From the NCBI RefSeq assembly GCF_018069705.1, contig NZ_CP072943.1, forward strand, positions 2,943,945 to 3,007,944: a stretch of 64,000 bases of DNA. Direction: 5' to 3'. This DNA is from Aminithiophilus ramosus. GTDB lineage: Bacteria; Synergistota; Synergistia; Synergistales; Aminithiophilaceae. How positions within the stretch are numbered: the stretch's first letter is position 1; each line of letters starts with the position of its first letter. The notes beneath the pieces were generated by a model. The model did no database searches, had not been told where the DNA came from, and saw nothing but the letters and a program-made list of their open reading frames with translations. Shown piece after piece: positions 12,975 through 42,047 of the stretch. The translations under genes were made by a program, and so were the position numbers.

Positions 12975-12987
12975 CTGACCATCTCCT

Positions 12988-19158: not shown

Positions 19159-19363
19159 TTCCGCCTCCCCTGCCGAGAGGCAGACTCCCTCTGCGGGGGG
19201 AGGACGCGACAGCCTCCGGCAAACCTTTCCGTCCCCGTTGATCTCCGATCCGCCCCTGAAAGGAATACAAATTTGACAACGGAACTTCCCTGACCTACAC
19301 TTTCGACATCACCCCCTGTTTAGGAAATATCTTTTCCAAATAGGAAACAAGGAGAGACGCCCA

Positions 19364-20116: not shown

Positions 20117-20221
20117 GCTTTCTGCCTGGCCGTCGAAAAAGGGGAGGTGGTGCGCCGTCAAGCGCTCGAATCGGGGACGGGAAGGGGAAAGGGAATACGG
20201 TGACAGAGAAAGGGGATTGCG

Positions 20222-21229: not shown

Positions 21230-21291
21230 GACATCGGTCGGGGAGGAAGGAAACCGCTCTTCCTCCCCGACCTCAGACCGGAGGTGACTTC

Positions 21292-21834
21292 GTGAACGCC
21301 ATCGAAGCGATCAAAGGCTCCCTGTTCTGGAGGGTTCTGGGCCTCTTCCAGAAGGCGATCCTCATCCTGTCCAGCCTCTTCGTCGCCCTCATCATGTGCG
21401 CCCAGGTCCTGATGCGCTACGTCTTCAAATCCGATCTCTACGGGATGGAGGAGATCATCGTCATCGTCGCCTTCTGGCTCTATTTCATGGGCAGCTCCTA
21501 CGGCGTCTACGAAAAGAGCCACGTAAGGGCCGACATCATCCCCCAGCTTCTGTCGGAAAAACCCCGGAGGATCCTCTCTCTGGCCGTTCAGGCTACGATG
21601 ACGGCTCTCTGCCTCCTCTTTTCCTGGTGGGGGCTGGACTTCATCGGCTACAGCCTTCAGGAGATGCCCCGGACTCTCATCTGGGCGATCCCTCTCGCCG
21701 TAGGCCAGTCCTCGGTCCTCGCGGGCTACCTGATCATGAGCTTCTATTCCGTCGTCTACCTCGCCGAGGAATTCCTGGAGATCCGGGCTTTCCTGCGCAA
21801 GGATTCGACGGCTGAAGCCACCCAGGCGAGGTGA
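21292..21834 (+). CDS. dctQ: TRAP transporter small permease (DctQ)
   Basis: 4-TM protein. GTG start at 21292 preceded by GGAGGTG. Confidence 0.7.
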   Translation: MNAIEAIKGSLFWRVLGLFQKAILILSSLFVALIMCAQVLMRYVFKSDLYGMEEIIVIVAFWLYFMGSSYGVYEKSHVRADIIPQLLSEKPRRILSLAVQATMTALCLLFSWWGLDFIGYSLQEMPRTLIWAIPLAVGQSSVLAGYLIMSFYSVVYLAEEFLEIRAFLRKDSTAEATQAR

Positions 21835-21841
21835 GCCCGCG

Positions 21842-23146: not shown

Positions 23147-23162
23147 ACAAGGAGGATCGATC

Positions 23163-24797: not shown

Positions 24798-24855
24798 AAG
24801 CCCCATGGGCGATACGTAAAACATCCAAGGACACCCAAAGACCAGCCAAAACGGC

Positions 24856-24890
24856 ACAACGGGGCTCTCAAAAACGGAGAGCCCCGTTGT
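24856..24890 (-). terminator. Rho-independent terminator at the 3' end of the gas-vesicle operon
   Basis: ACAACGGGGCTCTC loop GAGAGCCCCGTTGT, with a T-tract on the minus strand after the hairpin. Confidence 0.7.
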
Positions 24891-24929
24891 TGGATAAGCC
24901 GATATATAAATAAATTTATCGAAAATTAT

Positions 24930-25193
24930 CTATTCAATATCCGTATTACCTCTATAACGCAGGTTTTTTCGTTCAAATGAAATCAATCCTCCATTTTCGT
25001 CGAGAAAGACATCGTAACGACCCAACACATCCATCGTTTCCGGTATGGATTTACGCTCAAGCCCTTCGACAGACACAATCCATTGACCATCCATCCTAGA
25101 AACTCCCACCACTCTCTCTACAGAAAGTTGAGCTAAAAGAGAAAGATCTTCTCTGGCTTTTTTAATAGCCTCTTCAGCATTCACAATTTTCAC
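24930..25193 (-). CDS. Small hypothetical protein, last gene of the gvp operon
   Basis: 87-aa ORF, AT-rich codon usage like the rest of the island. No recognisable motif. Confidence 0.4.
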   Translation of the reverse strand: MKIVNAEEAIKKAREDLSLLAQLSVERVVGVSRMDGQWIVSVEGLERKSIPETMDVLGRYDVFLDENGGLISFERKNLRYRGNTDIE

Positions 25194-25215
25194 TTCCCAT
25201 CATTATATTTACATT

Positions 25216-25779
25216 TCAAGCTATAGAGTTAATCCTATTTTCTAAAACGGATTTGATTTTAAGCATATCACGAGAACGCAACAAGAATGAACCACCTGAC
25301 ACAAGAGAGAAATCCATGACATCCATTTCCAAACTACCTTCATCTTTCTTTTTAGTTACATTAAATATATTTACATCCGACAAAAAACATCTCAATATGA
25401 CATTTTTAGAGTTGTTTTGAGAAACAATTAGTTCGTTAGATGTAATACAAAGAAATCCTGATTTCCAATTTTCATAAGGACAATTATTTTTTAGTATAGA
25501 AACAAATGTTTTCAAAAAGACTTTTTCATTCAAATTTAAAATAAGTTTATTTTTTTCTGTTTCTTCAATGGCATATGCCCTTTGAGCTTCATCCCAATCA
25601 TTCCATATGCCATAACGAAGCATTGTCTCCATTCCAGCAATACAAGCCTTAAGACTTAATCCTAACAAAGGAATTCCAGCAACATGAATAATTATATCAG
25701 CATGAAGAACAATTCCTTTATCTAGAATTCTCTCTAACAAATCAACCAAAGTTGCATCGTAATCCCTAGTAGGCTTCAT
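25216..25779 (-). CDS. GvpJ/GvpM-family protein (GvpA-like core plus C-terminal extension)
   Basis: N-terminus LVDLLERILDKGIVLHADIIIHVAGIPLLGLSLKACIAGMETMLRYG aligns with the GvpA core. Confidence 0.7.
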   Translation of the reverse strand: MKPTRDYDATLVDLLERILDKGIVLHADIIIHVAGIPLLGLSLKACIAGMETMLRYGIWNDWDEAQRAYAIEETEKNKLILNLNEKVFLKTFVSILKNNCPYENWKSGFLCITSNELIVSQNNSKNVILRCFLSDVNIFNVTKKKDEGSLEMDVMDFSLVSGGSFLLRSRDMLKIKSVLENRINSIA

Positions 25780-25788
25780 GCTAACGCT

Positions 25789-26625
25789 TTATTCCACGTA
25801 GTTAGAGCTAATACTCCGAGAAATTCCACTTATATCACCAACAAAGCTATAAAGTGGCCAAGGCCCTGTAAATCTGACAGAAAAACTATCATATAATTTT
25901 ATTTCATCCAAAAAATTACCTAAACCGTCAATTTTATCGTTATCAACCATACAGGACAGGTTTAATATCATTTTAGACGAAGCATCAGTTTTTTTAGGCT
26001 TTTCTATTACAATTTCACTGCAGCAAGACAAAACTTTATTATAAAAATAATCAGAAAACTTATTTATTTCAATTAAAACTTCATCCTTAATGGCCTTATC
26101 TAGTTTTTGTTTATACATATAAGCAACTCCCGGAGACTTCAAATCAATATCTTGCTTTAATTTAAGTAGATATTTATTTTCAAAAGCTATTTTATTTTCC
26201 AAAACATCCGTTGCACAAAAAAGCTGGACAACATATTCATTTTTATTTTTAAATCTACGCATCATGCAGGTTAGAGATTCTTGCTCTTCTTGAAGCCATT
26301 TTAATATTACATGATCAGAAGAAAGCTCTCCCTGAGCGCAGACAATCGTATCAAAACTAACAGGGACAACACAATCAAACACCTTACTCGCTTCATCGAG
26401 CACTCGATGATGATCCATCACCCACGCTCGAACTGAATCCGCCTCTGCCGATCGATAAGGCTGCGGAAGACAATCATGAACGATAGCGCATAAATCCCCG
26501 GAGATAATCATGCGAACCGGTTTGCCACCAATCCCCAAAGAAGTGAAAGACACTCTCTCCAAAATCAAGGCAAGACCATAAACGTACCTCCCATCCTCTT
26601 CAAAAGGTGGAAAAACCTTCTCCAT
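25789..26625 (-). CDS. Gas vesicle protein GvpF/GvpL family (copy 2)
   Basis: N-terminal YVYGLALI..GIGG..V motif typical of GvpF/L. Size 278 aa. Confidence 0.65.
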   Translation of the reverse strand: MEKVFPPFEEDGRYVYGLALILERVSFTSLGIGGKPVRMIISGDLCAIVHDCLPQPYRSAEADSVRAWVMDHHRVLDEASKVFDCVVPVSFDTIVCAQGELSSDHVILKWLQEEQESLTCMMRRFKNKNEYVVQLFCATDVLENKIAFENKYLLKLKQDIDLKSPGVAYMYKQKLDKAIKDEVLIEINKFSDYFYNKVLSCCSEIVIEKPKKTDASSKMILNLSCMVDNDKIDGLGNFLDEIKLYDSFSVRFTGPWPLYSFVGDISGISRSISSNYVE

Positions 26626-26696
26626 CGCCAGCGCCCCCTCATTCAGACAAAAAAGGCCCTGTCCTCCATGGCAAACCCATGGCTAAAGCCTCATCT

Positions 26697-27011
26697 TTAT
26701 CTATCAATCTCATCACGCCAACGCTCTGGATTCACAATACGATCCAAAACGTCACCAACCACTTGATCCAATCCATCGCGCACAGCTTGAACCGACTCAA
26801 CAAGGTCATTATCCTTTTTGATTTCTTCTAGAGCAATTTCAAGCTCCATTAAAGCCTCTCCAAGACGCTCACACTCTGCCTCTCGGATAGAGCCTTCATC
26901 CATTCTTTTAACGGCTTCAATTTTAAGAGCATCGCGAATGACTTCAACAAGAGCTACGACCAACCCCAACAACCCCTGCTTCAAATTTCCTTCGTCAATA
27001 TTAAGAGACAT
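26697..27011 (-). CDS. gvpK: Gas vesicle protein GvpK
   Basis: LLGLVVALVEVIRDALKIEAVKRMDEGSIREAECERLGEALMELE matches the GvpK consensus. Confidence 0.7.
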   Translation of the reverse strand: MSLNIDEGNLKQGLLGLVVALVEVIRDALKIEAVKRMDEGSIREAECERLGEALMELEIALEEIKKDNDLVESVQAVRDGLDQVVGDVLDRIVNPERWRDEIDR

Positions 27012-27014
27012 TAA

Positions 27015-27455
27015 TTACTCCTTGTCAAGCGTTATCTTCAACACACCATTCCTATATTCAATTATATGAGACATTTCGTTTGGTATTCTAGGGACGACGT
27101 TCACGGATGCGATTAAAGTAATTTTATTCCCTTCAGAATATATATCCATACATGAAAATTCTTTATTTAATCCTATCTCATCCACAAACCACCACTGGAA
27201 AAACCATTGCTTACCGTCACACGGATCTATTTTTGATTCTTTAAAAACAATAATGGAGTATCCTAATATTTTTTCAGAATTTGTATTTATTATATGTTTT
27301 ATTCTATAAATTATCTCAAAGTCATTCCTACAGCTTAAATCCCGTCTAAGATCCACTATGCTTGCATGACGTCTCCACCAAACGTCCAGCAGCAAAATTT
27401 TGCTTATTGAATCTATGGAATCCAACAAGTCAGATAAAAAATTCCTGTTGTCCAT
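27015..27455 (-). CDS. Hsp20/alpha-crystallin-like small protein (possible GvpH-type chaperone)
   Basis: C-terminal ...EYRNGVLKITLDK resembles the Hsp20 C-terminal beta strand. Weak overall. Confidence 0.4.
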   Translation of the reverse strand: MDNRNFLSDLLDSIDSISKILLLDVWWRRHASIVDLRRDLSCRNDFEIIYRIKHIINTNSEKILGYSIIVFKESKIDPCDGKQWFFQWWFVDEIGLNKEFSCMDIYSEGNKITLIASVNVVPRIPNEMSHIIEYRNGVLKITLDKE

Positions 27456-27463
27456 ATTTAAAT

Positions 27464-27844
27464 TTAATCTACGATAGCAATGGATTCTTCGTTTTTATCC
27501 AACAAAGACTCTCTAGCCCTGGCACTGACCCATCCGCACCAAGGACAACATTTCGACAAAAGCTCTTCCGTAAAAACTCGCTTTCCGCACTGAGGACATG
27601 TTTCCTTGCCTTTTTGCGCTTCTTTCCAGGCATCTGTATTGTAATTTGTTCCACTTGGAAATTCCAATCCATAATGAGCCGCAGTTTCGAAAGAAGCTAA
27701 AGCAGCTCGTATCTTTATTCCAAGCAATTCAACACCTGCTACAGACACGCAAATATCGGCATTGATAACTAAACCCTTATCTAAAACACGGTCGATAACA
27801 TCGACCAGCGTCGAACTTGCCTCTCGTGTGGGTTGCATAGACAT
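27464..27844 (-). CDS. GvpJ/GvpA-family protein fused to a C-terminal zinc ribbon
   Basis: LVDVIDRVLDKGLVINADICVSVAGVELLGIKIRAALASFETAAHYG (GvpA-like) followed by CPQCG...CPWCG. Confidence 0.7.
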   Translation of the reverse strand: MSMQPTREASSTLVDVIDRVLDKGLVINADICVSVAGVELLGIKIRAALASFETAAHYGLEFPSGTNYNTDAWKEAQKGKETCPQCGKRVFTEELLSKCCPWCGWVSARARESLLDKNEESIAIVD

Positions 27845-27853
27845 CGACCGTTC

Positions 27854-28090
27854 TCACCTCTCAGCCTTTATTTTTTTTAATCTTTCTATTAGATCATTTT
27901 CGAGTTCATCGTATTCATTTTCACTCAAGTTTCCATCTTCCAATGATTTTTGAATTTCTTTAAGCCTAGCTCTAATGGCATCTTCTGTCATCAGGCCTTC
28001 CTTATCTATTTCTTTTTTAATGGCAAGAATAATTTCTTTCGACAAAATAACGGGGATACCTATGAAAATATCTTTTATTAAACCTAACAT
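27854..28090 (-). CDS. gvpG: Gas vesicle protein GvpG
   Basis: 78 aa. MLGLIKDIFIGIPVIL...GNLSENEYDELENDLIERL matches the GvpG family pattern. Confidence 0.7.
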   Translation of the reverse strand: MLGLIKDIFIGIPVILSKEIILAIKKEIDKEGLMTEDAIRARLKEIQKSLEDGNLSENEYDELENDLIERLKKIKAER

Positions 28091-28842
28091 GGTTTTTTAA
28101 AATAATTCATTTCCACATTCAAAAACGTATAGGGAGGCAGAGGAGCAATACACTTAAAATTAAATTTATTATTATACTTTTCATCCAATTTATGGATTGA
28201 TTTTATAAAATCGTCTTTATCGGCTTTTTTTACAAGAAATGAGGCGTTTAGCACATTTTCTATACCAGATTCAGAGTCTTTATGGCTATCAAGAGCTATA
28301 TTTTTGAAATAACCATATATATCATCAGAATAAATATTTCTTTTGTCTAGAAGCAATGATTCTACTAATTTGCCAGCATCTATTTTAATATTTTGTTTTT
28401 CTAACAAAGAAGATGTTTTATTAATTTTAGATTTAATTTTAACTATTTCCTTGTTGTTGACTTCAATTTCTTTTATTTCTGAGTTATAATCCCAATAAAC
28501 CTTGACAACCACCTCAATGACGCCTGATAACCGATTTATTTCATTGACTATGGATTCTTTGCTTTTTTGCAGTAAATCCATCATTTCATTCTTAGATGCA
28601 AGTACACCAAATCCTGCTGGGAGTAAAGTGTATTTATCCATCAAAAATTCTTGCACGGTCGCGTGTGTGGAAATATTTTTCCTGGTCGGATATATTTCAT
28701 CGTTACCAAAGTCACTGACAACAGCAGAAATTTTATCTATACTAATAGAATAAACTTTTGAACTATTAATACCAATTACATCAAAAATCTTAAAATCAGG
28801 CTCATTTATAATACCATAAAAATATTTATTTTTAATATTCAT
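28084..28842 (-). CDS. Gas vesicle protein GvpF/GvpL family (copy 1)
   Basis: KYFYGIINEP...KVYSISIDKISAVVSDF is the GvpF/L N-terminal signature. Confidence 0.65.
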   Translation of the reverse strand: MNIKNKYFYGIINEPDFKIFDVIGINSSKVYSISIDKISAVVSDFGNDEIYPTRKNISTHATVQEFLMDKYTLLPAGFGVLASKNEMMDLLQKSKESIVNEINRLSGVIEVVVKVYWDYNSEIKEIEVNNKEIVKIKSKINKTSSLLEKQNIKIDAGKLVESLLLDKRNIYSDDIYGYFKNIALDSHKDSESGIENVLNASFLVKKADKDDFIKSIHKLDEKYNNKFNFKCIAPLPPYTFLNVEMNYFKKPC

Positions 28843-28846
28843 AAAA

Positions 28847-30973
28847 TCACCTCTTGCGTTCCATTACACTATTAATGGCTAAATCAAAATGATTTTTAAG
28901 TATAACAATTTTATTTTCACCGTTTGAAGCCATATATTCTCTTAACGCCAAGCGAGCTGCTTCTTGACATAACTGCTTGAGCTCTGCTCCAGAAAAATCT
29001 TCTGTACGCATAGAAATTTCTTCAAGCGAGACATCGCCATCCAAAGGCATTTTTTTGCTATGTATCTTAAGGATTTCTATCCGATCATCTTTATCTGGAA
29101 GATTGAAATTTAAAATTAGATCAAATCTGCCCGGGCGAATGATCGCTGGATCTATCAAATCTTGCCTATTGCTTGCAGCTAAAACTAAAACATCTTTGAG
29201 CTCTTCAATTCCATCCATTTCGGAGAGGAATTGGCTGATTACTCGATCAATAACTTGAGAATCTCCAAAAGAATGTCTTAGAGGGACCAATGAATCAAAT
29301 TCATCGAAAAATAAAATACAAGGGCTTGCCTGTCTCGCTTTACGAAATACCTCTCGAACTCCTTTTTCCGACTCTCCAACATATTTAGACAAAAGCTCCG
29401 AGCCTTTTACGGATATGAAATTAATTTCACTTTCGTTGGCCATGGCCTTCACCACTAACGTTTTACCCAATCCGGGAGACCCCGAGAGCAAGATGCCCTT
29501 CGGCGGCCGAAGCCCCACGCTCGCAAGCAGCTCGCCATGCTTAAGCGGCCAAGCCACCGCCTCCGAAAGCTGCCTCTTGATCTCGCGAAGGCCACCGACA
29601 TCTTCCCAGCTCACGTCGGGCACCTCCACGAAAACCTCCCGAATGGCCGATGGTTCCACTTCTTTGAGGGCACCAAGGAAGTCGTCCATCATCACTTCCA
29701 TTTGCAAAATATCGATGTCGGCGACCTCTTCGATCCGACAGGTGTAATCGGGAACGACCCTCCGCAGGACGCTCATGGCTGCCTCCCGACACAGGGCCTC
29801 CATATCGGCACCGACAAAACCGTGAGTCACTCGCGACAACCTCTCCAAATCGACATCGGAGGCGAGCGGCATGCCTCGAACGTGGATGCTCAATATCTCC
29901 AACCTGTCCCTCTGGTCCGGTATGGCGATCTCCAGCTCCCGATCAAACCGTCCCGGGCGACGAAGCGCCGGATCCAAGGCGTTGGGTATATTCGTCGCAC
30001 CGATGACAATGACGTCACCGCGCGACTCTAGGCCATCCATCAGAGCCAACAGCTGCGCGACCACCCGCCTCTCCACCTGTTTCTCCCCGCCCATTTCCTC
30101 CCGCTTGGGGGCAATGGCATCGATCTCGTCGATAAAAAGAATCGACGGGGCATTCTTTCTGGCCTCTTCAAAAAAGCCCCTCAACCTGGCCTCGCTCTCA
30201 CCATAAAACTTGCCCATAATTTCAGGCCCCGTCACATGGACGAAATACGCTGCCGTTTCACTGGCGACAGCCCTGGCGATCAGGGTTTTTCCACAGCCCG
30301 GAGGACCATAGAGCAATACCCCCTTCGGGGGATCTATACCCAGTCGATCGAAAAGGCGGGGACATTTCAGAGGAAGTTCGATCATTTCTCGTATTTTTTT
30401 AAGCTCTCTTGACAATCCACCTATATCTTCATAGGATATTTTGGATCTTTTAGTTGAATTTTGTTGAATTTTATCTAATAAAATACGAGTTTTTTGCGAA
30501 ATAAGGACAGGTCCGCCAGGAGTGGTATTATTGACCAAAAAATCCTGATTCCTGTTTCCCATAAAGTTAACTCTTATGAAATCACCCTCTATAACGGCAA
30601 GACCTGTCAAAATGGATCCTATATAGGAAATATCCTTATCTCCAAGTGGAATACGAACGTTTGACAAAGGAGCTATGACAATCTTTTCCGCTAATTTAAA
30701 ATCTATCTTTATTACATTGACGTTATTGTTCAATGACGTTTTTGCATTGTTTCTTAGAGTCCAATCCATTTGAATTATTCTTTTTCCTCGATCTTGCGGA
30801 AAAGTAGGCATTATTTTAGCTATAGTTTGCCTTTCTCCTTCAATCTGAACCACATCGCCTACACTTACACCCATTATTTCCATATCTACAGGGTCTATGC
30901 GAACAATTCCTCTCCCGACATCTTTTAAATTAGATTCAGCTACAATAAATACTGAATTATTGATTTTTCCCAT
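28847..30973 (-). CDS. CDC48/VCP-like AAA+ ATPase (N-domain plus two AAA domains)
   Basis: CDC48-type N-domain (SNLKDVGRGIVRIDPVDMEIMGVSVGDVVQIEG) and two Walker A motifs, GPPGCGKT and GSPGLGKT. D1 is encoded by a GC-rich block. Confidence 0.8.
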   Translation of the reverse strand: MGKINNSVFIVAESNLKDVGRGIVRIDPVDMEIMGVSVGDVVQIEGERQTIAKIMPTFPQDRGKRIIQMDWTLRNNAKTSLNNNVNVIKIDFKLAEKIVIAPLSNVRIPLGDKDISYIGSILTGLAVIEGDFIRVNFMGNRNQDFLVNNTTPGGPVLISQKTRILLDKIQQNSTKRSKISYEDIGGLSRELKKIREMIELPLKCPRLFDRLGIDPPKGVLLYGPPGCGKTLIARAVASETAAYFVHVTGPEIMGKFYGESEARLRGFFEEARKNAPSILFIDEIDAIAPKREEMGGEKQVERRVVAQLLALMDGLESRGDVIVIGATNIPNALDPALRRPGRFDRELEIAIPDQRDRLEILSIHVRGMPLASDVDLERLSRVTHGFVGADMEALCREAAMSVLRRVVPDYTCRIEEVADIDILQMEVMMDDFLGALKEVEPSAIREVFVEVPDVSWEDVGGLREIKRQLSEAVAWPLKHGELLASVGLRPPKGILLSGSPGLGKTLVVKAMANESEINFISVKGSELLSKYVGESEKGVREVFRKARQASPCILFFDEFDSLVPLRHSFGDSQVIDRVISQFLSEMDGIEELKDVLVLAASNRQDLIDPAIIRPGRFDLILNFNLPDKDDRIEILKIHSKKMPLDGDVSLEEISMRTEDFSGAELKQLCQEAARLALREYMASNGENKIVILKNHFDLAINSVMERKR

Positions 30974-31502
30974 TTTTAGGAGATATTTCTATTTTAAAAA
31001 TTCCATTTAAATAAGAATGAAGGAGTGTGTTTTGGTTTACATTGAATTCAGTTTTGATTTCCTTAAAGTATTTTCTTGATTTGCTCTCTGCTTGAACAAC
31101 TATAGTTCCATCTGTTATTTCAATCATAATATCTTCTTCATTCACGCCGGGCATTTCTAGAACTATAACCATTCTATCTTTTTCGTTAAAAATATCCGTT
31201 ATAGGTTCCCTGACTTCTTGTTGGTTATTTTCCAAATCAGATATTTTTTTATTTCCAAATGTTTCAATTATCGGCTTGCCTGCTAAATTTTTTACAGTAA
31301 AACCATAAATGCCCCGAATTCCTTCGGGGCTTTCAATAGATCCCTTTTTTTCAACTACATCAAACCTATCGACCATATCCAATAAACTACCTAACCCCTT
31401 AAAAATTCCTTCAAAACTTATTTTACCTTTTTTGAAATCTATCTCTATTTTATCTTTCTCTTCATCCGGATTTTCTTTTTTTTTACTATTATCCATTGTC
31501 AT
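30957..31502 (-). CDS. Hsp20/alpha-crystallin family chaperone (GvpH-like)
   Basis: Alpha-crystallin domain: MVIVLEMPGVNEEDIMIEITDGTIVVQAE ... NGIFKIEISPK. Confidence 0.75.
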   Translation of the reverse strand: MTMDNSKKKENPDEEKDKIEIDFKKGKISFEGIFKGLGSLLDMVDRFDVVEKKGSIESPEGIRGIYGFTVKNLAGKPIIETFGNKKISDLENNQQEVREPITDIFNEKDRMVIVLEMPGVNEEDIMIEITDGTIVVQAESKSRKYFKEIKTEFNVNQNTLLHSYLNGIFKIEISPKNGKNQ

Positions 31503-31535
31503 TTACGCAACACCCCGATCTAGGCGCTAAAACAT

Positions 31536-32465
31536 CTAATAATTCTCAACATTACCATATGGTTCTCTTTCAATATTGCTGGCTGCATCAATAATAAGCC
31601 TAGAAACCGAGGCTCTTTTTTTACTTGATATAATTGGCAATATAGTATCGTTGCATATTTCAATAAATCTATCTTCAGATATGTTGCCCTTTTTATCCAA
31701 AAAATCTATATATTTCGCTATTTTAATAGAAGACCGCACAGTGGGAGTAAGTTTATCCGAATAGTTATTTCTTATGGTTCTTATTAATTTAACTATTCTA
31801 ACTATTTCGCTTTCACATAAATCCACTCTACCTCGCACAATTGCTACTTCCGTCTCTTCGTCAAAGCTGCTTAACTCCAATGTTACCAGTCTATCTTTTA
31901 ATGCATCTTGACTTTTATAAACACCGGCATATTCCTCTGGGTTGGACGTGAATATCGCCCTGAAGTCGGGATGAACCCTAACGTAAGACTCTTTACCATT
32001 TCTACCCGAAACAGGAAGTATTTTACTCTCCAGCACTGATAAAAGGACGTTATTGGCCTCTGGTCTAGATCTAGTGAATTCATCATAGACAAGCGTCAGT
32101 CCACGCTCACACGCGACAGTCAGCCTGTTATCAAACCACTGAGACGTCATTACATCTTCTGTCTTGACAACAGACCTAATAAAATTGTCTTTAGTGTAAT
32201 TATGACGATATCCGGACACATAACCGACCAGATCGGAAGTTCCAAATTCATGATCACCACAAATCAAAACGACAGGACGACCTATTTTTGCGGCCACATG
32301 CATCGCTAAAGTCGTCTTGCCCACTCCAGTAGGTCCGCTTAAATGAATAGGAAAGCCACAGGAAGAATAACTAAGGGCTTTTTCGGATATTTTTGATATG
32401 TATGGAGTTTCTACAAACTCCAAGCTTGGCCTTGAAGTAATAAGCGTCATCCTTCCTCGATCCAT
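31536..32465 (-). CDS. gvpN: Gas vesicle protein GvpN (MoxR/CbbQ-like AAA+ ATPase)
   Basis: Walker A LSGPTGVGKTTLA, Walker B LVYDEF. Size 309 aa is typical of GvpN. Confidence 0.8.
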   Translation of the reverse strand: MDRGRMTLITSRPSLEFVETPYISKISEKALSYSSCGFPIHLSGPTGVGKTTLAMHVAAKIGRPVVLICGDHEFGTSDLVGYVSGYRHNYTKDNFIRSVVKTEDVMTSQWFDNRLTVACERGLTLVYDEFTRSRPEANNVLLSVLESKILPVSGRNGKESYVRVHPDFRAIFTSNPEEYAGVYKSQDALKDRLVTLELSSFDEETEVAIVRGRVDLCESEIVRIVKLIRTIRNNYSDKLTPTVRSSIKIAKYIDFLDKKGNISEDRFIEICNDTILPIISSKKRASVSRLIIDAASNIEREPYGNVENY

Positions 32466-32492
32466 AACTTAAATACCTCCAAAATCACAGGA

Positions 32493-32873
32493 TCAGTAAT
32501 GCATTTCAAAATTCTCATCATTCACTGCGTCGCCATCGCTTGAGTCGCACATATCAGAGCTATTCTCTTTTTGCAGTTCTCTGCGCAACTCCATCAGGGC
32601 TTTATTTTTGTCAATAATAACTGCAAGCTTCTTTCTGGAATTCAAAAGGCGCGCCCTGGCTCTCTCGACCGATTGCAACCTAGAGGCGAAACGCCTCTTC
32701 TCTCGCTCGAGCATCGTTTGGAAATTGCGATCCTTTTCCAAATCCGGAGCATCGTTATTATCAAAGGCACGAAACAAAGCACCTGTCGTCCTGGCTTTTT
32801 GGCCACGGAAAACTTCAGCATTGCTTTTAATATGGCGCATTGTTCGAAGTTTAGTCAGAGCTTCACTTTTCAC
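32493..32873 (-). CDS. Hypothetical basic protein between the coiled-coil gene and gvpN (possible GvpO-like)
   Basis: 126 aa, helical and charged, with an acidic C-terminus. No firm motif. Confidence 0.4.
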   Translation of the reverse strand: MKSEALTKLRTMRHIKSNAEVFRGQKARTTGALFRAFDNNDAPDLEKDRNFQTMLEREKRRFASRLQSVERARARLLNSRKKLAVIIDKNKALMELRRELQKENSSDMCDSSDGDAVNDENFEMHY

Positions 32874-33888
32874 CGATTTCTACCTCCCCTTCTGACAAAG
32901 GGAAATAAAGCTTACCCTCCCTTCGAATCCCGCCCTCATCCAAGAGATTTCTTGACACTCGTCCCAACGCCACTGTGGCCATGCCCAACTTATCGGCCAC
33001 ATCGGTCAGGGAGATACCTTCAGGATGCGCCTTAATGACTGACAAAAACCTGGTCTTAAGATCTTCCCCCGTCACAGCAAAGTCCTCTTCCTCCGTTGCG
33101 CGTTCAAGTACGGAGCAATCCGGGTCCCTCTCATCCGCCTCGGGAGAGGCGTCATCTCTTGATTCGACGGAAGGTTCGGCTTCAACCTCATCGTCTTCGC
33201 AAGACTCTTCATTCACAAGGCATTCCGACCAAACCGCTCTCGTCTCCTCAAGCAAGTCAATAATGACCTGCCTTTCTTTGTTTAAATTATTTCTTAACAT
33301 ATCTACGCTTTGTTTCATGTTGGAAATATCCGCTAATCTTTTTTGACGTAATTCATCGAATTGATTTTTTAATGATTCACGAATGTCACTTAAAATATCT
33401 TTAACCTCTTTATGCAGGTTTTCTATCTCAATCTTACGGTTATTGATATTCAATCTAACATTTTCATTATACTGTTTTTTTAGCGATAAAATCTTTTCTC
33501 TTGATGCTTCTATTCTCTTCTTATTTTCTTCTTTGAGCTCTTCTCTTATATCTGGGGTATTTTTTTGGGATGCCAACCTTGACGCCTCAAAAAGAAGATC
33601 AAGCTCTTTTTTGAAGCCATCCAACATATCTGCCGTGGATTTTTTAATTTCCATGACTTCTTCTTCTATTTTCTTTTTATTTTGAACCAGCTTTGATTTC
33701 ATCGACTCTTTCTCATCAAATCTCTCGGTAGAAAAGGTTTTAAGTGTTTCATCTATTGTTTTTTTAAGATCTTGGAGATTTTGATATCTATCGGCATGAG
33801 AATCAGCCAACTCCTGAACCAATGACCTAGTCTCTTCCAATAAATTCACAGTCCATCCCTCCTCGGTTATTATGGTTTTAAATCTCAA
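32863..33888 (-). CDS. Coiled-coil protein with C-terminal winged-helix (MarR/ArsR-like) domain
   Basis: About 230 aa of heptad-rich, K/E-rich sequence, then ISLTDVADKLGMATVALGRVSRNLLDEGGIRREGKLYFPL. Confidence 0.5.
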   Translation of the reverse strand: MRFKTIITEEGWTVNLLEETRSLVQELADSHADRYQNLQDLKKTIDETLKTFSTERFDEKESMKSKLVQNKKKIEEEVMEIKKSTADMLDGFKKELDLLFEASRLASQKNTPDIREELKEENKKRIEASREKILSLKKQYNENVRLNINNRKIEIENLHKEVKDILSDIRESLKNQFDELRQKRLADISNMKQSVDMLRNNLNKERQVIIDLLEETRAVWSECLVNEESCEDDEVEAEPSVESRDDASPEADERDPDCSVLERATEEEDFAVTGEDLKTRFLSVIKAHPEGISLTDVADKLGMATVALGRVSRNLLDEGGIRREGKLYFPLSEGEVEIGEK

Positions 33889-33939
33889 AACCCATTATTT
33901 TGCAATTTAACATAAAAATTCATCTAAATGCATTAATAA

Positions 33940-34641
33940 TCAAATTTCATCGCGTGTTGCGATAGGTTCTATTCTATATTGCGATCTTTCATCTTTAAAT
34001 CTACCCAAAGTGGCTCTTACTTCTTCTCTTCTTAAATCCCTATCTTGTTCTCTTGTAAATCTACTTTTTATTGTTTCAAGCTGCCACATGTCTTTCATTT
34101 CTAGGGAGCTGGACCGCTCCAACAGGCGGCGCATAGAATTGTTCCATTCCAACATTATTTTTTTATAGCATTGAATTTTATACTGAAATTTACATAATTG
34201 CTGAAATACGTCGTCTCCGTTTTTTTGATAAGTCCCTTTCATTTCATCAACGAAACATTCCAGCTCTTTTTTATCTATAGTCTTTTTAATGCAATTATAA
34301 ACTTTAGTTTTAAGAGTTAGCGTCAACTCTATCTGTTCTTTTAAATATCTCCTCAGAGATAGCTCGATTTCTTGACTATCAGCTATAAGAACGTCTCTAT
34401 CTTTATCTATTCCATCAAAAAGCCTATTCATGAAGTTATCAAAATCTTTTTTTCTGAAAGAACAATTTCTCGCTGCCATCTCTCTCAAGTCTACGCGCAG
34501 GTGATCGCGCTCTTTATGAAGGATTTCCAAATCCTCCGCCAAGCTCGACGTGACCTCATGGACCGTAGAGACCATCTCTTCCACCATGAGGATCCTTGAC
34601 GAATGGGCATCGATAAGATCAAGGAGCATACATTCATCCAT
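33940..34641 (-). CDS. Hypothetical helical protein immediately downstream of the gvpA array (GvpC-position)
   Basis: ORF extends to 34689, but the compositional change suggests the start at MDECMLLD (34641). Confidence 0.4.
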   Translation of the reverse strand: MDECMLLDLIDAHSSRILMVEEMVSTVHEVTSSLAEDLEILHKERDHLRVDLREMAARNCSFRKKDFDNFMNRLFDGIDKDRDVLIADSQEIELSLRRYLKEQIELTLTLKTKVYNCIKKTIDKKELECFVDEMKGTYQKNGDDVFQQLCKFQYKIQCYKKIMLEWNNSMRRLLERSSSLEMKDMWQLETIKSRFTREQDRDLRREEVRATLGRFKDERSQYRIEPIATRDEI

Positions 34642-34732
34642 TTTCGATACTTGGCCTCCCGAGGAAGGGCATATGGCCTGGCAGGGCACGCTTGCGAAAC
34701 AAGGGAACCCTGGCAGACCTCCACAAAGGAAC

Positions 34733-34942
34733 TTACGCGGAGATCGGAGCCGTCAGGCCGACCGCTTCGGCGTACTTCAGGTAGGTCTCCACACCGGCGA
34801 CGACCACCCGTGCCTCGACGGTCAGAAGTTCCAGCCCCAACAGGGAGATCCGCACCCACGCATCGATCACGAGACCCTTGTCGAGAATCCGATCGATGAC
34901 CTCAGCCAGACCCGACGAAGCCATAGACGTCTGCACTGCCAT
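34733..34942 (-). CDS. gvpA: Major gas vesicle structural protein GvpA (copy 3 of 3)
   Basis: [69 protein letters not shown] is canonical GvpA. Confidence 0.95.
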
Positions 34943-35011
34943 TTCGTTCCGCCTCCTTACGAGTCTTTCCTTGGGCTTTCCTTGCCTCCTGCGGGAGGGC
35001 GCCGCCGATCC

Positions 35012-35221
35012 CTACGCGGAGATCGGAGCCGTCAGGCCGACCGCTTCGGCGTACTTCAGGTAGGTCTCCACACCGGCGACGACCACCCGTGCCTCGACGG
35101 TCAGAAGCTCCAGCCCCAACAGGGAGATCCGCACCCACGCATCGATCACGAGACCCTTGTCGAGAATCCGATCGATGACCTCAGCCAGACCCGACGAAGC
35201 CATAGACGTCTGCACTGCCAT
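35012..35221 (-). CDS. gvpA: Major gas vesicle structural protein GvpA (copy 2 of 3)
   Basis: Protein identical to the other copies. RBS GGAGG 8 nt upstream of the ATG. Confidence 0.95.
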
Positions 35222-35290
35222 TTCGTTCCGCCTCCTTACGAGTCTTTCCTTGGGCTTTCCTTGCCTCCTGCGGGAGGGCGCCGCCGATCC

Positions 35291-35500
35291 CTACGCGGAG
35301 ATCGGAGCCGTCAGGCCGACCGCTTCGGCGTACTTCAGGTAGGTCTCCACACCGGCGACGACCACCCGTGCCTCGACGGTCAGAAGCTCCAGCCCCAACA
35401 GGGAGATCCGCACCCACGCATCGATCACGAGACCCTTGTCGAGAATCCGATCGATGACCTCAGCCAGACCCGACGAAGCCATAGACGTCTGCACTGCCAT
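35291..35500 (-). CDS. gvpA: Major gas vesicle structural protein GvpA (copy 1 of 3, promoter-proximal)
   Basis: Identical GvpA. RBS AGGAGGTG upstream. AT-rich promoter region at 35510-35640. Confidence 0.95.
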
Positions 35501-35509
35501 TTCGTTCAC

Positions 35510-35650
35510 CTCCTTTCTTGTACGCTAAACTTGCAGAATACTACATCAGCATTCTTCAAGGAACAAGGCCTTTTTAGCATTTTTTAATAAATATTTATAC
35601 TTCTTGACATGAGTCTCCGTCAGACAGGGGCAATAATATTAGAAGATACT
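35510..35650 (-). promoter_or_regulatory. AT-rich promoter region for the gvpA-led operon
   Basis: Only AT-rich stretch upstream of gvpA. Contains TTGACA-like and TATAAA/TAATAT-like hexamers. Exact -35/-10 pairing not resolved. Confidence 0.4.
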
Positions 35651-36252
35651 GCTCTGTTCTCCGCCTTGTTTCATTTTTTTGGAAAACACGACCAACAGCA
35701 CCCCCGGCAATCGCTTCAGGGGAGACAAGACAGACCAGCACCGCAGGACCTCGGAGAGGCCCGCGTACGAGAACGAACCCACAGCCGGATTCACCTGGGG
35801 CTCAACCCCAGCACGACAACCCTGCTACGGCGACGGAACAGGCGAAAAGGGGAGAGGAGAGGTAACATAGGGAGAACAGCGGAGAGGAAGATGGGAAGGA
35901 ACGGCGTCGAACGTCGTTTTCGCTTCGCTGCACCTGTGAAGGGAAGGCCAATAGAACAAGACGAACTATTGAAAATTGCAACCTTACAAGCAGATTATAG
36001 CACCTGATTGCCTCTGTCAAGGACCGCTTTTTCTCTTTATCGTGGACGAAGAGGGCTCGTCTCCGCCCGTGGGGAAGGCTCGGAAAGCCCCTGGCGGAAG
36101 GGGACGGGCTGTCGCACCATGACGGCGTCCAGGAAGACGTCTTTCGAGGCTTTTGACCGCCCGAATCGGCTCTGGCTCGCGAAAACAGGGAGAAAACGGT
36201 CGGTCCGGGATGCCCTTCGGGCAGTCTTCACCGCTCCCGACGGGAGGCCTCC

Positions 36253-37470
36253 TTGCGGAAAGGACGACGAACCATGGGGAAAGGCCCTTCGGAGACAGGA
36301 ATTCCTTCCTCGGCTCTTTCGGATAGAATCTCTCCGCCCTTCCGCCTCATAGGGGGCGATCCCTCGTTCACGGGAACTCCGCTGAAAAAAGGCGCCGTTT
36401 TTCGCCACCCCTTCGACGGGGAAGGAGGCCAACGTCTCTGGGTCGATTCGGGGCGCTCGGCCCTGGCCGTCGCCCTGGCCGCCCTGAGGGAGAGGGGAGC
36501 TCGGCGGGCCTGGCTGCCCTTTCTCTGCTGCAGCTCCGTCGTCGAGCCCTTTCTCGAGGCCTCCTTCTCGCTCCGCTTCTACGGCCAGTCGGGCCGCACC
36601 CCTTTCTGGACCGCTCCCCCCTCGGAGCTGAGACCGACAAAAGACGACGTCCTTCTGTTCATCCACTATTTCGGCTTCCTCAACGAGGGGATGGCCGCCT
36701 TTCTCGACGGGCTCGACGAGGCCAGGCGTCCCTTCGTCGTCGAAGACGCCGTCCCGGCCTCCCTCACCGAAGGGACGGGGCGTTGGGGCGACGTCACCCT
36801 CAGGAGTTTCCGCAAATTTCTCCCCGTCGCCGACGGCGCCGTCGTCGCCTCCCGCGATGCCTTCCTGGCGGGAACGGTCTGCCTGGGGGCACCCGACATC
36901 CGACGGCTGCGGCTCAAGGGCTGGGCCGCCCTGGGGCGGTACCTCTGCCCCGACGAGGGACGGCGCTGGCTCGCCCTGGCTCGCCAGGGCGAGGAGCGCT
37001 TCGACGGAAGGCCCCGGCTCCCCTCGCCTCTGAGTCTGAAGATCCTGGCGCGCTGCGATCTGCCCTCCGTCGTCGCGGCTCGGCGACGGAACTACGAAAG
37101 GCTCCTTGAAGAGCTCGAGCGCCACCGTATCCTGGACCCTCTTCACCCTATCGCGGAGAGGCTCCCTCCCCACGTCGTCCCCCAGGGACTGCCCCTCCGC
37201 CTTTTCGGTGGCTCCCGGGACGAAGTCCTGCGCCGCCTGCGCCGTGAAGGGATCTTCTGCCCCGTCGACTGGGGCGTCAACAGCCTGGCCGAGGCTCCCG
37301 CCGAGGAGGATGCAGGCGTGGCCCGCTCCCTTCTCGTCCTTCCCGTCGATCAGGGGCTGAACGGCCAGGCTCTGTCCTTCATCGCCGACAGGGTGGGAGA
37401 CGCCCTGCGGACGGGCGGACAGCCCCCTTCACTCTCGCGCCGCCGGGGAGACCGGCCGGCGACACGTTGA
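36253..37470 (+). CDS. PLP-dependent DegT/DnrJ/EryC1/StrS-family aminotransferase-like protein
   Basis: Family pattern SGRSALAVALAAL..RAWLPFLCCSSVVEPF and SFRKFLPVADG (SF-x-x-K lysine). True start may be internal. Confidence 0.5.
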   Translation: MRKGRRTMGKGPSETGIPSSALSDRISPPFRLIGGDPSFTGTPLKKGAVFRHPFDGEGGQRLWVDSGRSALAVALAALRERGARRAWLPFLCCSSVVEPFLEASFSLRFYGQSGRTPFWTAPPSELRPTKDDVLLFIHYFGFLNEGMAAFLDGLDEARRPFVVEDAVPASLTEGTGRWGDVTLRSFRKFLPVADGAVVASRDAFLAGTVCLGAPDIRRLRLKGWAALGRYLCPDEGRRWLALARQGEERFDGRPRLPSPLSLKILARCDLPSVVAARRRNYERLLEELERHRILDPLHPIAERLPPHVVPQGLPLRLFGGSRDEVLRRLRREGIFCPVDWGVNSLAEAPAEEDAGVARSLLVLPVDQGLNGQALSFIADRVGDALRTGGQPPSLSRRRGDRPATR

Positions 37471-40273: not shown

Positions 40274-40531
40274 ATCTCAAAAAGCGACCCCCTCACCGTT
40301 CTGCGACGGAGACGAGAACGTCTCCGTCGCTTTATCATTTTACATGACTCGCCTACCGACGAGAAGGTCGAAGGCGTTACTGATTGAGAGGGATTGAAGT
40401 TTAAAGACACGAACAAACCCGACGCCGGGAAAAGGCAGGGCTTCTATAGTGGACCCCGAAAACTGGACCACGAGCTAAGTTGCAGTTGAAGTCGGGCTGT
40501 ATCATAGGGTCCCAGAAAGAGAGGGGACATC

Positions 40532-40816
40532 ATGGCAGCCAAGCGACAGAGGCGTTCAGCGGAGTTCAAAAGCAAAGTAGCCTTCGCTGCCCTGAAAGGG
40601 GATAAGACCCTGGCTCAATTGTCGGGTGAGTTCGAGGTTTCCGCCGTCCAGATCGGTCAGTGGAAGAAGCAGCTTCTGCAAGGGGGTCCGGAGATCTTTC
40701 AACGCAAAGGCACTCCGATGGATGTCGAGACGTCGATGGCCCCCCTCTACCAGGAGATCGGTCGGCTCAAGATGGAGCTCGACTGGCTCAAAAAAAAATC
40801 AGGCGCTGACGCTTGA
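40532..40816 (+). CDS. IS3-family transposase OrfA (HTH)
   Basis: MAAKRQRRSAEFKSKVAFAALKGDKTLAQLSGEFEVSAVQIGQWKKQ is the typical IS3 OrfA. Confidence 0.8.
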   Translation: MAAKRQRRSAEFKSKVAFAALKGDKTLAQLSGEFEVSAVQIGQWKKQLLQGGPEIFQRKGTPMDVETSMAPLYQEIGRLKMELDWLKKKSGADA

Positions 40817-41663
40817 GGGAAAGCGGACCTCCATCGATCCCGAGCACCCTTCGATCAGTGTTCGTCGGCAATGTGACCTCCTTGATCTTAACCGGTCCAG
40901 CTTCTACTACGCGAGCTCTTCCGCGACGGAGACGGCGGAGAACCTTGAAATCATGGAGCTCATCGACGGCCGGTACACCTGCGCCCCCTCTTACGGGAGC
41001 CGCCGGATGACGGCCTGGCTGCGTCGACAGGGACAGGACGTGAACCGCAAACGGATCGGACGGCTGATGAGGCTTATGGGGCTCGAAGGGATTGGCCCCA
41101 AACCGGGAACCAGCAAGCCTCACCCCGAACATGAGATTTATCCCTACCTGCTCCGGAACGCCGTCATCGTCAGACCGAATCAGGTCTGGAGCACCGATGT
41201 CACCTACCTCCCGATGAGTGGCGGTTTCATGTACCTCGCGGCCGTCATCGATTGGCACAGCCGCTTCGTTCTCTCCTGGGAACTTTCCAACACCCTGGAC
41301 GCAGAGTTCTGCGTCGTCGCCCTCGACAGGGCCCTTCGGCAGGGAACGCCGGAGATCTTCAACACCGACCAGGGCTGTCAGTTCACCAGTAAGGCCTTTC
41401 TGTCTCTGCTCAAGGAAAAGGAGATCCGGATCAGCATGGACGGTCGTGGCAGGGCCCTCGACAACATCTTCGTGGAACGCTTCTGGCGGACCCTCAAGTA
41501 TGAGTGGCTCTACTTGAACGACTACGAGCGGGTCCGCGATCTCCGCTGCGGCCTGCGGGAGTATATGGACTTCTACAACGACGAAAGGCTTCACTCCTCA
41601 CTGAACTACAGGACACCGCGGGAGGTTCACTTTGCCGACCGGGAGGGACCGATGGCGGTCTGA
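40626..41663 (+). CDS. IS3-family transposase OrfB (DDE/rve). Functional part begins at the frameshift site near 40795
   Basis: rve domain: VWSTDVTYL...YLAAVIDWHSRFVLSWEL...FNTDQGCQFTS...ERFWRTLKYEWLY. Confidence 0.8.
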   Translation: MSSRFPPSRSVSGRSSFCKGVRRSFNAKALRWMSRRRWPPSTRRSVGSRWSSTGSKKNQALTLEGKRTSIDPEHPSISVRRQCDLLDLNRSSFYYASSSATETAENLEIMELIDGRYTCAPSYGSRRMTAWLRRQGQDVNRKRIGRLMRLMGLEGIGPKPGTSKPHPEHEIYPYLLRNAVIVRPNQVWSTDVTYLPMSGGFMYLAAVIDWHSRFVLSWELSNTLDAEFCVVALDRALRQGTPEIFNTDQGCQFTSKAFLSLLKEKEIRISMDGRGRALDNIFVERFWRTLKYEWLYLNDYERVRDLRCGLREYMDFYNDERLHSSLNYRTPREVHFADREGPMAV

Positions 41664-42047
41664 CTTTAACTAACTTCGGGCCTCAAATGGTCTTGACAAT
41701 GGGGTCCACCATATTCAGGGCGCGCCTCGCGCCTCCCGGAGAACCGCACGGCTAATTTCGCACAGCAGTTGTCTTCCCAAGAAAGGACAAGGACAATTCG
41801 GCCTCATCGATCCTTTCGCCGTGCGGCATTCGCCTCGCCGGCAGCCCGAATCGACGAAAAAAGAGCGAAAATTCCCATCGCCCCGGCAAAGACGCGGCCG
41901 GGGGAGCGGAAACGTTCCCTCGGACCGACACCGGCGAGGTGGTTTGAGCGAAGCTCAAGCGGCTCCGACGACGTTTATCCTGACCGAGCCTGCTCTTCGG
42001 ATTCAGGGCACGAAAAAGGCCGTTCCCCGGGAGTCCCTTTCCCGAGA

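Follow-up and report, generated by a model that had tools for sequence, protein, structure and literature searches.

The gvpA array

Aminithiophilus ramosus carries three near-identical copies of gvpA, which encodes the main wall protein of gas vesicles, head to tail on the minus strand of a 64-kb stretch of its chromosome (contig NZ_CP072943.1). This stretch is referred to here as the window, and positions are those of the window unless another locus is named. Exact matches of its sequence identify the organism as this member of the Synergistota (family Aminithiophilaceae). The array heads a complete gas-vesicle operon extending down to position 24930, in the order gvpA (three copies), three genes without a Pfam or NCBIfam family match (orf233/249, orf328/341 and orf126), gvpN, hsp20, a CDC48-like gene, gvpF, gvpG, a gvpJ-like gene, orf146 (likewise without a family match), gvpK, gvpL/F, a second gvpJ/M-like gene and gvpO (Table 1). 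The array belongs to a sharply bounded GC-rich block inside an AT-rich inserted locus, and is followed by a conserved RNA hairpin.

Tandem Repeats Finder reports a single tandem array at 34734-35515, with 2.8 copies of a 279-nucleotide period and 99% matches. Each unit begins about 15 nucleotides before the gvpA start codon and ends at the stop codon. A GGAGG motif lies 7-8 nucleotides upstream of the ATG in each copy (at about 35508-35512 for copy 1), and the copies are separated by identical spacers of 69 nucleotides. They are adjacent and on the same strand, and differ at one position in 210 nucleotides, namely the synonymous G114A in the downstream copy (GAG to GAA, Glu38), which is the t/c difference at window position 34829. 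The stop codons of copies 1, 2 and 3 are TAG, TAG and TAA. The initial annotation, made from the letters of the sequence, had already described three tandem genes with a 279-bp period, a 69-bp spacer carrying its own ribosome-binding site (RBS) and a single synonymous change in copy 3. Repeat finding, open reading frames (ORFs) and profile matches bear all of this out, with the addition that the stop codon of copy 3 differs as well. Hairpins in the spacers were considered as functional elements and rejected, as they are no better folded than shuffled sequences.

The encoded protein matches the Pfam family Gas_vesicle (PF00741) with 56.6 bits (cut-off 25) and the NCBIfam GvpA subfamily model NF006874 with 119.9 bits (cut-off 100). 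With 69 residues it has the length of GvpA, a protein of about 70 amino acids, and its gene heads a cluster with gvpN, gvpF/L, gvpG, gvpJ, gvpK and gvpO. The presumed promoter and 5' untranslated region upstream of copy 1 is AT-rich and about 83% conserved in a sister species known from metagenome contigs.

The copy number was reproduced in a second complete A. ramosus genome (CP074691.1), whose chromosome is 99.93% identical to the window and which has the same three gvpA copies with the same copy-specific G114A. The worry that the array might be an assembly artefact is thus answered by two independent complete chromosomes. Two short-read metagenome-assembled genomes (MAGs) contain fewer copies. 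L008, which is about 97% identical to the window, has two that differ at four silent sites, and L009 has one; in addition, two metagenome contigs end inside the array. The one or two copies in the MAGs are uninformative on the true number, because the collapse of repeats during assembly gives the same picture. The last copy of L008 also has G114A, so this change predates the split from L008 and homogenisation of the copies is incomplete. Copy number may plausibly vary between cells or strains. Both complete genomes have three copies.

Composition of the locus

The GC content at third codon positions (GC3) is 0.80, 0.80 and 0.77 in the three gvpA copies, 0.23-0.47 in the 14 accessory genes and 0.75-0.92 in the 27 flanking host genes of the window, confirming the suspected contrast between gvpA and the neighbouring gvp genes. 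The difference between the GC3 of gvpA and that of gvpN is +0.46 here, compared with -0.008 +/- 0.087 (maximum +0.13) in 32 related clusters, defined as those holding both genes. The compositional contrast is therefore exceptional and not generic to gvp clusters. No description of GC heterogeneity within gvp clusters was found in the literature.

Maximum-likelihood segmentation assigns the array to a first GC-rich block, which comprises the gvpA copies, the spacers and a 264-bp tail with the hairpin, an RBS and the first approximately 57 codons of the next gene. The non-coding parts of this block are GC-rich as well, with 0.64 in the spacers and 0.58 in the 3' tail versus 0.20-0.56 in the intergenic regions of the island. 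The tail is 93-100% identical to that of the sister species, compared with about 82% for the rest of the operon. An abrupt switch had been placed within about 50 bp on either side of the array. This describes the upstream border (at about 35498-35515), whereas on the downstream side the block continues for 264 bp past copy 3 to position 34469.

A second GC-rich block lies within the CDC48-like gene. Segmentation with two breakpoints gives a log-likelihood ratio of 64.3, the largest value among 20 shuffles being 9.1. The borders of this block are sharp and lie near both Walker A motifs. The earlier statement that all accessory genes downstream of the array are AT-rich fails for this gene, as its codons 214-513 have a GC3 of 0.70. 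The contrast does not attach to gvpA as such but to two contiguous blocks, whose limits do not follow those of genes or domains and which take in non-coding DNA.

Codon choice separates the blocks from the host genes as well as from the island. In an index resembling the codon adaptation index, built from the 27 host genes of the window, gvpA scores 0.449, host genes 0.686 +/- 0.056 (minimum 0.547) and island genes 0.13-0.28. When the amino-acid sequence of GvpA was kept and codons were drawn from host usage, gvpA deviated with z = -3.9, and 0 of 2000 simulations were as low. The alanine codon GCC is used for 2 of 10 alanines in gvpA versus 79% in the host. Hence, the host-preferred codons ascribed to gvpA at first are not found; its index lies below those of all 27 host genes, and codon use in the GC-rich blocks is intermediate, neither host-like nor island-like. 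An excess of G over C at third positions of gvpA was also considered as a sign of foreign origin. It is weakened by GC-rich actinomycete gvpA genes that show the same pattern, and the valid test of codon origin is the amino-acid-matched one given above.

Two further accounts of the composition were rejected. GC3 might track protein constraint, but no correlation was found; outside the CDC48-like gene, GC3 in windows of 30 codons and protein conservation give a Spearman rho of 0.03-0.14. Within the CDC48-like protein, residues 391-420 combine a GC3 of 0.80 with an identity of 0.43-0.50, and the D2 core (residues 541-600) combines a GC3 of 0.23-0.27 with an identity of 0.80-0.83. Transcription-associated deamination as the cause of the AT-richness was dismissed on logical grounds, because the most transcribed gene is the GC-rich one.

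An RNA hairpin downstream of gvpA

Directly after the last gvpA copy, the GC-rich tail contains an imperfect hairpin at 34674-34720 with a folding energy of -38.5 kcal/mol. The same element is present downstream of gvpA in the nearest outgroup clusters L092 (584-629) and L093 (6229-6277) and in many other clusters from many phyla, among them L068 (3050-3106), with one element per locus in L012-L093. Among 35 distinct aligned sequences, 92.3% of the pair cells are paired versus 79.2 +/- 1.0 in shuffles, and 0 of 500 shuffles reach the observed value. Compensatory changes occur in 12 of the 17 pairs, and double-change cells number 106 versus 36.6 +/- 6.6 in shuffles. When the pairing partners are slid by 1-3 columns, pairing falls to 33-46%, and RNAalifold independently predicts the same structure. 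The seed was picked by a pattern that requires the outer motif UUGCC ... GCCAA; the covariation of the inner stem lies outside that pattern. The many G-U pairs suggest a sense-strand RNA. Further hallmarks are invariant UGCC/GCC bases and a conserved C-C mismatch.

A covariance model of the element gives 37 hits in 1.3 Mb, one per locus and all on the operon strand, including 11 loci that are not in the seed. In the 64-kb window there is one hit only, at the hairpin itself (48.4 bits, E = 4e-12), and none in L182, a related locus that lacks the operon. In both tandem arrays with the element, those of the window and of cluster L078, it follows the last gvpA copy only. A U-tract is absent, the sequence that follows the hairpin being AUAUGCCCUUCC, and a scan for intrinsic terminators over 34300-36300 found no terminator-like site. 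Rfam 15 yields no hit at gathering score in the window and none at E <= 10 over the hairpin region (34400-35700), and no paper describing a hairpin after gvpA was found. The hairpin is a candidate new cis-regulatory motif. It is likely to stabilise or end gvpA transcripts, or to bind a protein through which expression of gvpA relative to the accessory genes is set.

Insertion and relatives

The locus was compared with that of a more distant relative, the Synergistaceae MAG GCA_016756725.1 (L182), whose host genes are 77-82% identical. Synteny is kept in the order DctPQM-M20-orf364-MCP-Tex, and the site of the operon is empty, with 48 bp (12955-13002) between the M20 peptidase gene and orf364, the homologue of orf398. 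In blastn, positions 7465-12959 of L182 correspond to 19323-24802 of the window, and 13105-13682 to 36436-37007. Because the site in L182 is empty, the whole operon including the gvpA array is regarded as an insertion of about 11.6 kb; a precise deletion in the L182 lineage is less parsimonious.

The island has a GC content of 0.29-0.50 per kb versus 0.60-0.70 in its flanks. The array had been described as embedded in a low-GC island. The island is confirmed, whereas the array sits at its upstream edge; upstream of the array lie about 160 bp of AT-rich promoter region and then about 600 bp of GC-moderate non-coding DNA, both also inserted. The latter stretch (35660-36270) is purine-rich and lies between orf398 and the promoter region, with about 83% conservation in the sister species, and searches assigned it neither a function nor an RNA family. 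There is no tRNA in the 64-kb window, no direct repeats bracket the island, and a profile search found no integrase or mobility domain in any island ORF. An element of 1,269 bp at 40445-41713 is absent from the otherwise 99.9% identical CP074691.1 and represents a strain-specific insertion sequence. Its IS3-family transposase gene (40626-41663, plus strand, 292 bits) adjoins chemotaxis-receptor genes and is unrelated to the island.

The sister species (metagenome contigs L001-L006 and L094-L101) carries the operon at the same locus (MCP, orf397, gvpA), with about 92% identity in the host flanks and about 82% in the operon. The mosaic is the same, with a GC3 of 0.80-0.81 in gvpA and 0.73 in the CDC48 block (codons 195-496). 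Its array has at least two tandem copies with a homologous 54-nucleotide spacer, and 8 fixed differences separate all its gvpA copies from all those of A. ramosus. These shared differences indicate that the array predates the species split and evolves in concert, so that recombination among the copies, initially suspected from their near identity, is borne out.

A single gvpA is present in 30 of the 32 related clusters, including the nearest outgroups L092 and L093. The latter two share the gene order of A. ramosus and have uniform composition, with a GC3 of 0.52-0.64 in L092 and 0.36-0.49 in L093, which is from Acetomicrobium. Two gvpA-like copies occur in only 2 of the 32 clusters, L078 (7627-8235) and L034 (7396 and 8833). 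In L078, a Pseudomonadota MAG, the copies are in tandem and 311 bp apart, with the hairpin after the second. The closest relatives of the GvpA protein are found in the sister species (99%), Dehalococcoidales/Chloroflexi (88-94%), the L092 type (90%) and Acetomicrobium (87%); among the matches listed, GvpN and the CDC48-like protein have the same groups as neighbours. The protein comparison thus gives no apparent sign of a separate origin of GvpA, a 69-residue protein that resolves little.

Silent divergence differs between the parts of the operon. The proportions of differences at four-fold degenerate sites between the window and the sister species are 0.10 (64/631) for host genes, 0.11 for gvpA, 0.33 for the CDC48 block, 0.44 for the AT-rich genes and 0.51 for the CDC48 flanks. 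The corresponding values against L008 are 0.037, 0.053, 0.026, 0.108 and 0.105, and Nei-Gojobori dS agrees. Hence, the divergence of the gvpA block is host-like, and that of the AT-rich operon genes (25000-34400) is 3-6 times that of the host in two independent comparisons. In orf233/249, codons 1-45 have a dS of 0.115 relative to the sister species, and the remaining codons one of 0.82. The AT-rich parts hold a GC3 of about 0.3 in both species despite this divergence, so simple rapid amelioration toward the GC content of the host does not fit. Their high silent divergence may stem from fast neutral change at an equilibrium rich in AT, or the alleles may have a deeper history. Polarisation by parsimony with the sister species as outgroup gives 145 AT-to-GC versus 71 reverse substitutions in the AT-rich part. 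This result was not relied on: silent sites of the outgroup are saturated, and parallel GC-to-AT changes produce the same appearance of an excess.

Gene content of the operon

Table 1. Features of the gas-vesicle locus of A. ramosus, with positions in the window.
Feature	Position	Strand	Description
Inserted gas-vesicle locus	24803-36435		Includes upstream non-coding DNA; no counterpart at the syntenic locus of L182
AT-rich region upstream of gvpA1	35501-35660	minus	GC 0.36; presumed promoter and 5' untranslated region
gvpA copy 1	35291-35500	minus	69 aa; GC3 0.80; Pfam PF00741 and NCBIfam GvpA matches
Spacer 1	35222-35290	minus	69 nt; GC 0.64; holds RBS of copy 2 and a weak 5-bp hairpin
gvpA copy 2	35012-35221	minus	Identical to copy 1; GC3 0.80
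Spacer 2	34943-35011	minus	69 nt; identical to spacer 1
gvpA copy 3	34733-34942	minus	G114A (synonymous), TAA stop; GC3 0.77
GC-rich block 1	34469-35498	minus	1,030 bp; GC 0.60, flanks 0.33 and 0.36; maximum-likelihood segmentation
Conserved RNA hairpin	34674-34720	minus	47 nt; directly after last gvpA, in GC-rich tail
orf233/249	33940-34641	minus	gvp-linked conserved gene; no Pfam/NCBIfam match; syntenic in L092 and L093
orf328/341	32863-33888	minus	gvp-linked, coiled-coil-like; GC3 of C-terminal part about 0.55
orf126	32493-32873	minus	gvp-linked conserved gene; no family match
gvpN	31536-32465	minus	AAA_5 ATPase; GC3 0.33
Hsp20-like gene	30957-31502	minus	GC3 0.23
CDC48-family double AAA+ ATPase	28847-30973	minus	708 aa; TIGR01243, 891 bits; Pfam CDC48_N and two AAA
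GC-rich block 2	29434-30331	minus	Within CDC48-like gene, codons 214-513; GC3 0.70, flanks 0.27 and 0.29
gvpF (GvpL_GvpF family)	28084-28842	minus	GC3 0.24
gvpG	27854-28090	minus	Profile match
gvpJ-like gene	27464-27844	minus	Gas_vesicle domain and two CxxC motifs; GC3 0.35
orf146	27015-27455	minus	Conserved gene; no family match
gvpK	26697-27011	minus	Profile match
gvpL/F	25789-26625	minus	Profile match
gvpJ/M-like gene	25216-25779	minus	Gas_vesicle domain, 187 aa; GC3 0.23
gvpO	24930-25193	minus	Final operon gene; profile match

The four genes without a family match (orf233/249, orf328/341, orf126 and orf146) keep their positions in this operon type, including in L092 and L093. The 328/341-residue protein has a weak winged-helix-like (RPA_C) match at its C-terminus. 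No gvpC gene follows the array; the genes directly after it match neither Pfam nor NCBIfam families, and no protein with 33-residue repeats was seen. In the GvpJ-like protein encoded at 27464-27844, the Gas_vesicle domain is followed by the motifs CPQC and CPWC, 14 residues apart, which suggests a zinc-ribbon-like tail. The gvpJ-like gene, orf146 and gvpK are absent from the called genes of the MAG records at L008 17095-18323 and L009 10838-12067. The DNA there is 97-99.96% identical to the window, in which the ORFs are intact, and the genes were probably under-called in this AT-rich stretch.

Proteins identical to GvpN (HCU22337.1) or at least 90% identical to GvpL (HCU22330.1) have been deposited under a 'Candidatus Atribacteria' MAG, on a contig of 10 kb. 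This low-GC island contig was probably mis-binned into that MAG by its composition. Literature searches returned nothing on gas vesicles in Aminithiophilus or the Synergistota, and no open-access report of them in A. ramosus.

Origin of the array and the mosaic

The favoured explanation, which is held with moderate confidence, is dosage amplification of gvpA with concerted evolution, in a horizontally inserted operon whose ancestry is mosaic, probably through recombination. An ancestral single gvpA was amplified together with its RBS to a tandem array upstream of the conserved 3' hairpin, and the copies have been kept alike by gene conversion or unequal crossing-over. By analogy with the multicopy gvpA genes of cyanobacteria, three translation starts per transcript would raise the dose of the main vesicle-wall protein. 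The hairpin could stabilise or end most transcripts, leading to a high ratio of GvpA to the accessory proteins. As for the mosaic, two versions of this operon family, one richer in GC and one AT-rich, may have recombined before A. ramosus and its sister species separated. The gvpA block and the middle of the CDC48-like gene would then be what the crossovers retained of the GC-richer parent, and silent sites in the AT-rich parts would since have changed 3-6 times faster than those of the gvpA block or of host genes. A recombinational mosaic is favoured because the blocks ignore gene, domain and coding boundaries and show intermediate codon use, and because they are common to both species and absent from the outgroups.

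Several points weigh against this explanation. Neither a GC-rich donor nor a second parental operon was found. The best external match of the CDC48 block has 77-80% protein identity, a metagenome scan gave nothing above 77% among the matches listed, and in nucleotide BLAST the 80 loci compared reached 73-80% identity at most. Compared segment by segment with 119 homologues, all three segments of the CDC48-like protein share their nearest relatives. The two ancestries are read from composition and block shape only, and a single lineage with locally differing substitution regimes is phylogenetically more parsimonious. In addition, the lower silent divergence of the blocks requires an extra assumption: the GC-rich DNA may be near equilibrium in this host and the AT-rich DNA not, or the AT-rich parts may have a deeper coalescence. 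Finally, a scan for the sigma-70 consensus upstream of gvpA1 gave no match on the operon (minus) strand. The triplication is ordinary in kind but found in a new lineage, and the mosaic is real, old and rare among related clusters.

Codon adaptation in situ is an alternative that retains some chance, albeit a rather small one. It proposes that the operon arrived in the GC-rich host as AT-rich foreign DNA, in which selection on translation moved the silent sites of gvpA, whose product is by far the most abundant, to GC-ending codons and still constrains them, the remaining genes being too weakly expressed. This agrees with the GC3 of 0.80 in gvpA versus 0.23-0.47 in the accessory genes and with the low, host-like silent divergence of gvpA. 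It also agrees with the GC3 of 0.23-0.35 in paralogous Gas_vesicle-domain genes of the same operon, which have very similar motifs, and both amplification and adaptation would match a demand for GvpA. However, the codons of gvpA are not those of the host (0.449 vs 0.686 +/- 0.056, and GCC for 2 of 10 alanines), and GC richness also extends to the spacers, the 3' tail and the first approximately 57 codons of the next gene. The 900-bp block of the CDC48-like gene is unrelated to protein conservation and stays unexplained, and no excess in gvpA is seen in the 32 other clusters, GC-rich hosts included. Amelioration of the most highly expressed gene, as offered in the initial annotation, hence suits the coding sites of gvpA, and does not extend to the non-coding DNA, the 5' end of the next gene or the CDC48 block.

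Similarly tentative, and doubtful on balance, is the proposal that the blocks are no relics of a single old recombination event. Selection acting on the nucleic acid, or conversion with a GC bias, would instead actively maintain them against the AT-ward drift that took the remainder of the operon to its mutational equilibrium, and the hairpin would be a new cis-regulatory RNA of many phyla that fixes the ratio of GvpA to assembly proteins. If true, the locus would provide a read-out, within one operon, of the forces that set GC content in a bacterium of 66% GC.

GC-biased gene conversion on its own appears unlikely. According to this proposal, conversion tracts become GC-enriched, the partners being the tandem copies and/or alleles of other strains in the best-conserved segments, and segments that do not recombine drift to an AT equilibrium and diverge fast. 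Conversion is evidently ongoing, given the concerted evolution of the array, and coding and non-coding parts of the repeat unit are equally GC-enriched. In both species the AT-rich parts, though highly diverged at silent sites, keep a GC3 of about 0.25-0.3, and they evolve 3-6 times faster than host genes. Furthermore, GC differences between in-group and out-group are symmetric (466 vs 499), as expected near a neutral equilibrium. Against this, GC enrichment is also seen in the 264-bp tail, which is not repeated, and in the CDC48 block, which is single-copy, and the edges of the island beside host DNA are not generally GC-rich. The 145 versus 71 substitutions in the AT-rich part do not correspond to an equilibrium either, although the parsimony bias could cause this excess. 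Biased gene conversion in bacteria is itself debated.

A native gvpA array of the host, to which an imported AT-rich accessory operon was fused, is very improbable. The position of the array at the edge of the AT-rich region and its GC3 and silent divergence from the sister species, which equal those of host genes, would fit such an origin. Yet the empty site of the syntenic relative is without gvpA as well, and the codon choice of gvpA is outside the range of all 27 host genes. Among the matches listed, GvpA has the same protein neighbours as GvpN and the CDC48-like protein, and gvpA with the 3' hairpin forms the normal operon head in many phyla. This main reading of the initial annotation is not supported, because the insertion includes gvpA and the three proteins share their neighbours.

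An assembly artefact, in which the array was expanded from one gene or the mosaic is a chimera, would agree with the one or two copies in short-read MAGs and the contig breaks within the array, but can practically be dismissed: two independent complete chromosomes have three copies and the same copy-specific G114A, the two copies of L008 differ at 4 sites, and the mosaic recurs in contigs from several unrelated metagenomes with reading frames intact across the block boundaries.

Comparison with known systems and significance

Tandem gvpA copies are known from cyanobacteria, with two in Calothrix, three in Microcystis, five in Anabaena flos-aquae and seven in Anabaena sp. 90 (PMC7204071, PMC3542288). 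Like these, the A. ramosus array consists of near-identical gvpA genes that open the operon head to tail and each have an RBS, with dosage of the main wall protein as the presumed role. It differs in its anaerobic Synergistota host, in the lack of gvpC after the array and in the conserved hairpin at the array end. Furthermore, the composition of the array is far from that of its own operon, for which no report from cyanobacteria was found.

In gene order, gene families and the 3' hairpin, the operon belongs with a type found in Dehalococcoidia/Chloroflexi, Acetomicrobium and many uncultured lineages (L012-L093). Among the matches listed, identity to representatives of this type is 56-70% for GvpN and the CDC48-like protein and 87-94% for GvpA. 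That type has one gvpA (30/32) and uniform composition, in contrast to the three copies and the GC3 difference of +0.46 in A. ramosus.

Mosaic penicillin-binding-protein genes of Streptococcus and Neisseria arise by homologous recombination between diverged alleles. Like these, the A. ramosus operon consists of contiguous blocks with sharp shifts in composition and divergence and with intact reading frames. Unlike them, its blocks are known from GC3 and silent divergence, and no matching foreign allele is at hand. The locus also resembles AT-rich acquired islands, being a low-GC insert in a genome of 66% GC that a relative lacks at the syntenic site. It departs from typical islands of this kind by the lack of mobility genes, tRNA and flanking repeats and by two blocks of near-host GC inside. 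Lawrence and Ochman are said to have put forward an amelioration model for horizontally acquired DNA in 1997; the present insert departs from it in that it predates the species split and yet has a GC3 of about 0.3.

An old insert with a GC3 of about 0.3 in a host with about 0.85 offers an unusually clean test of amelioration, recombination mosaics and biased conversion. As the 'Atribacteria' record of an island contig shows, islands of this kind lead binning by composition astray. The locus also extends gvpA amplification beyond the cyanobacteria. The amount of shell protein relative to assembly factors is known to limit the heterologous expression of gas vesicles, and the structured RNA after gvpA is a candidate control point for this ratio.

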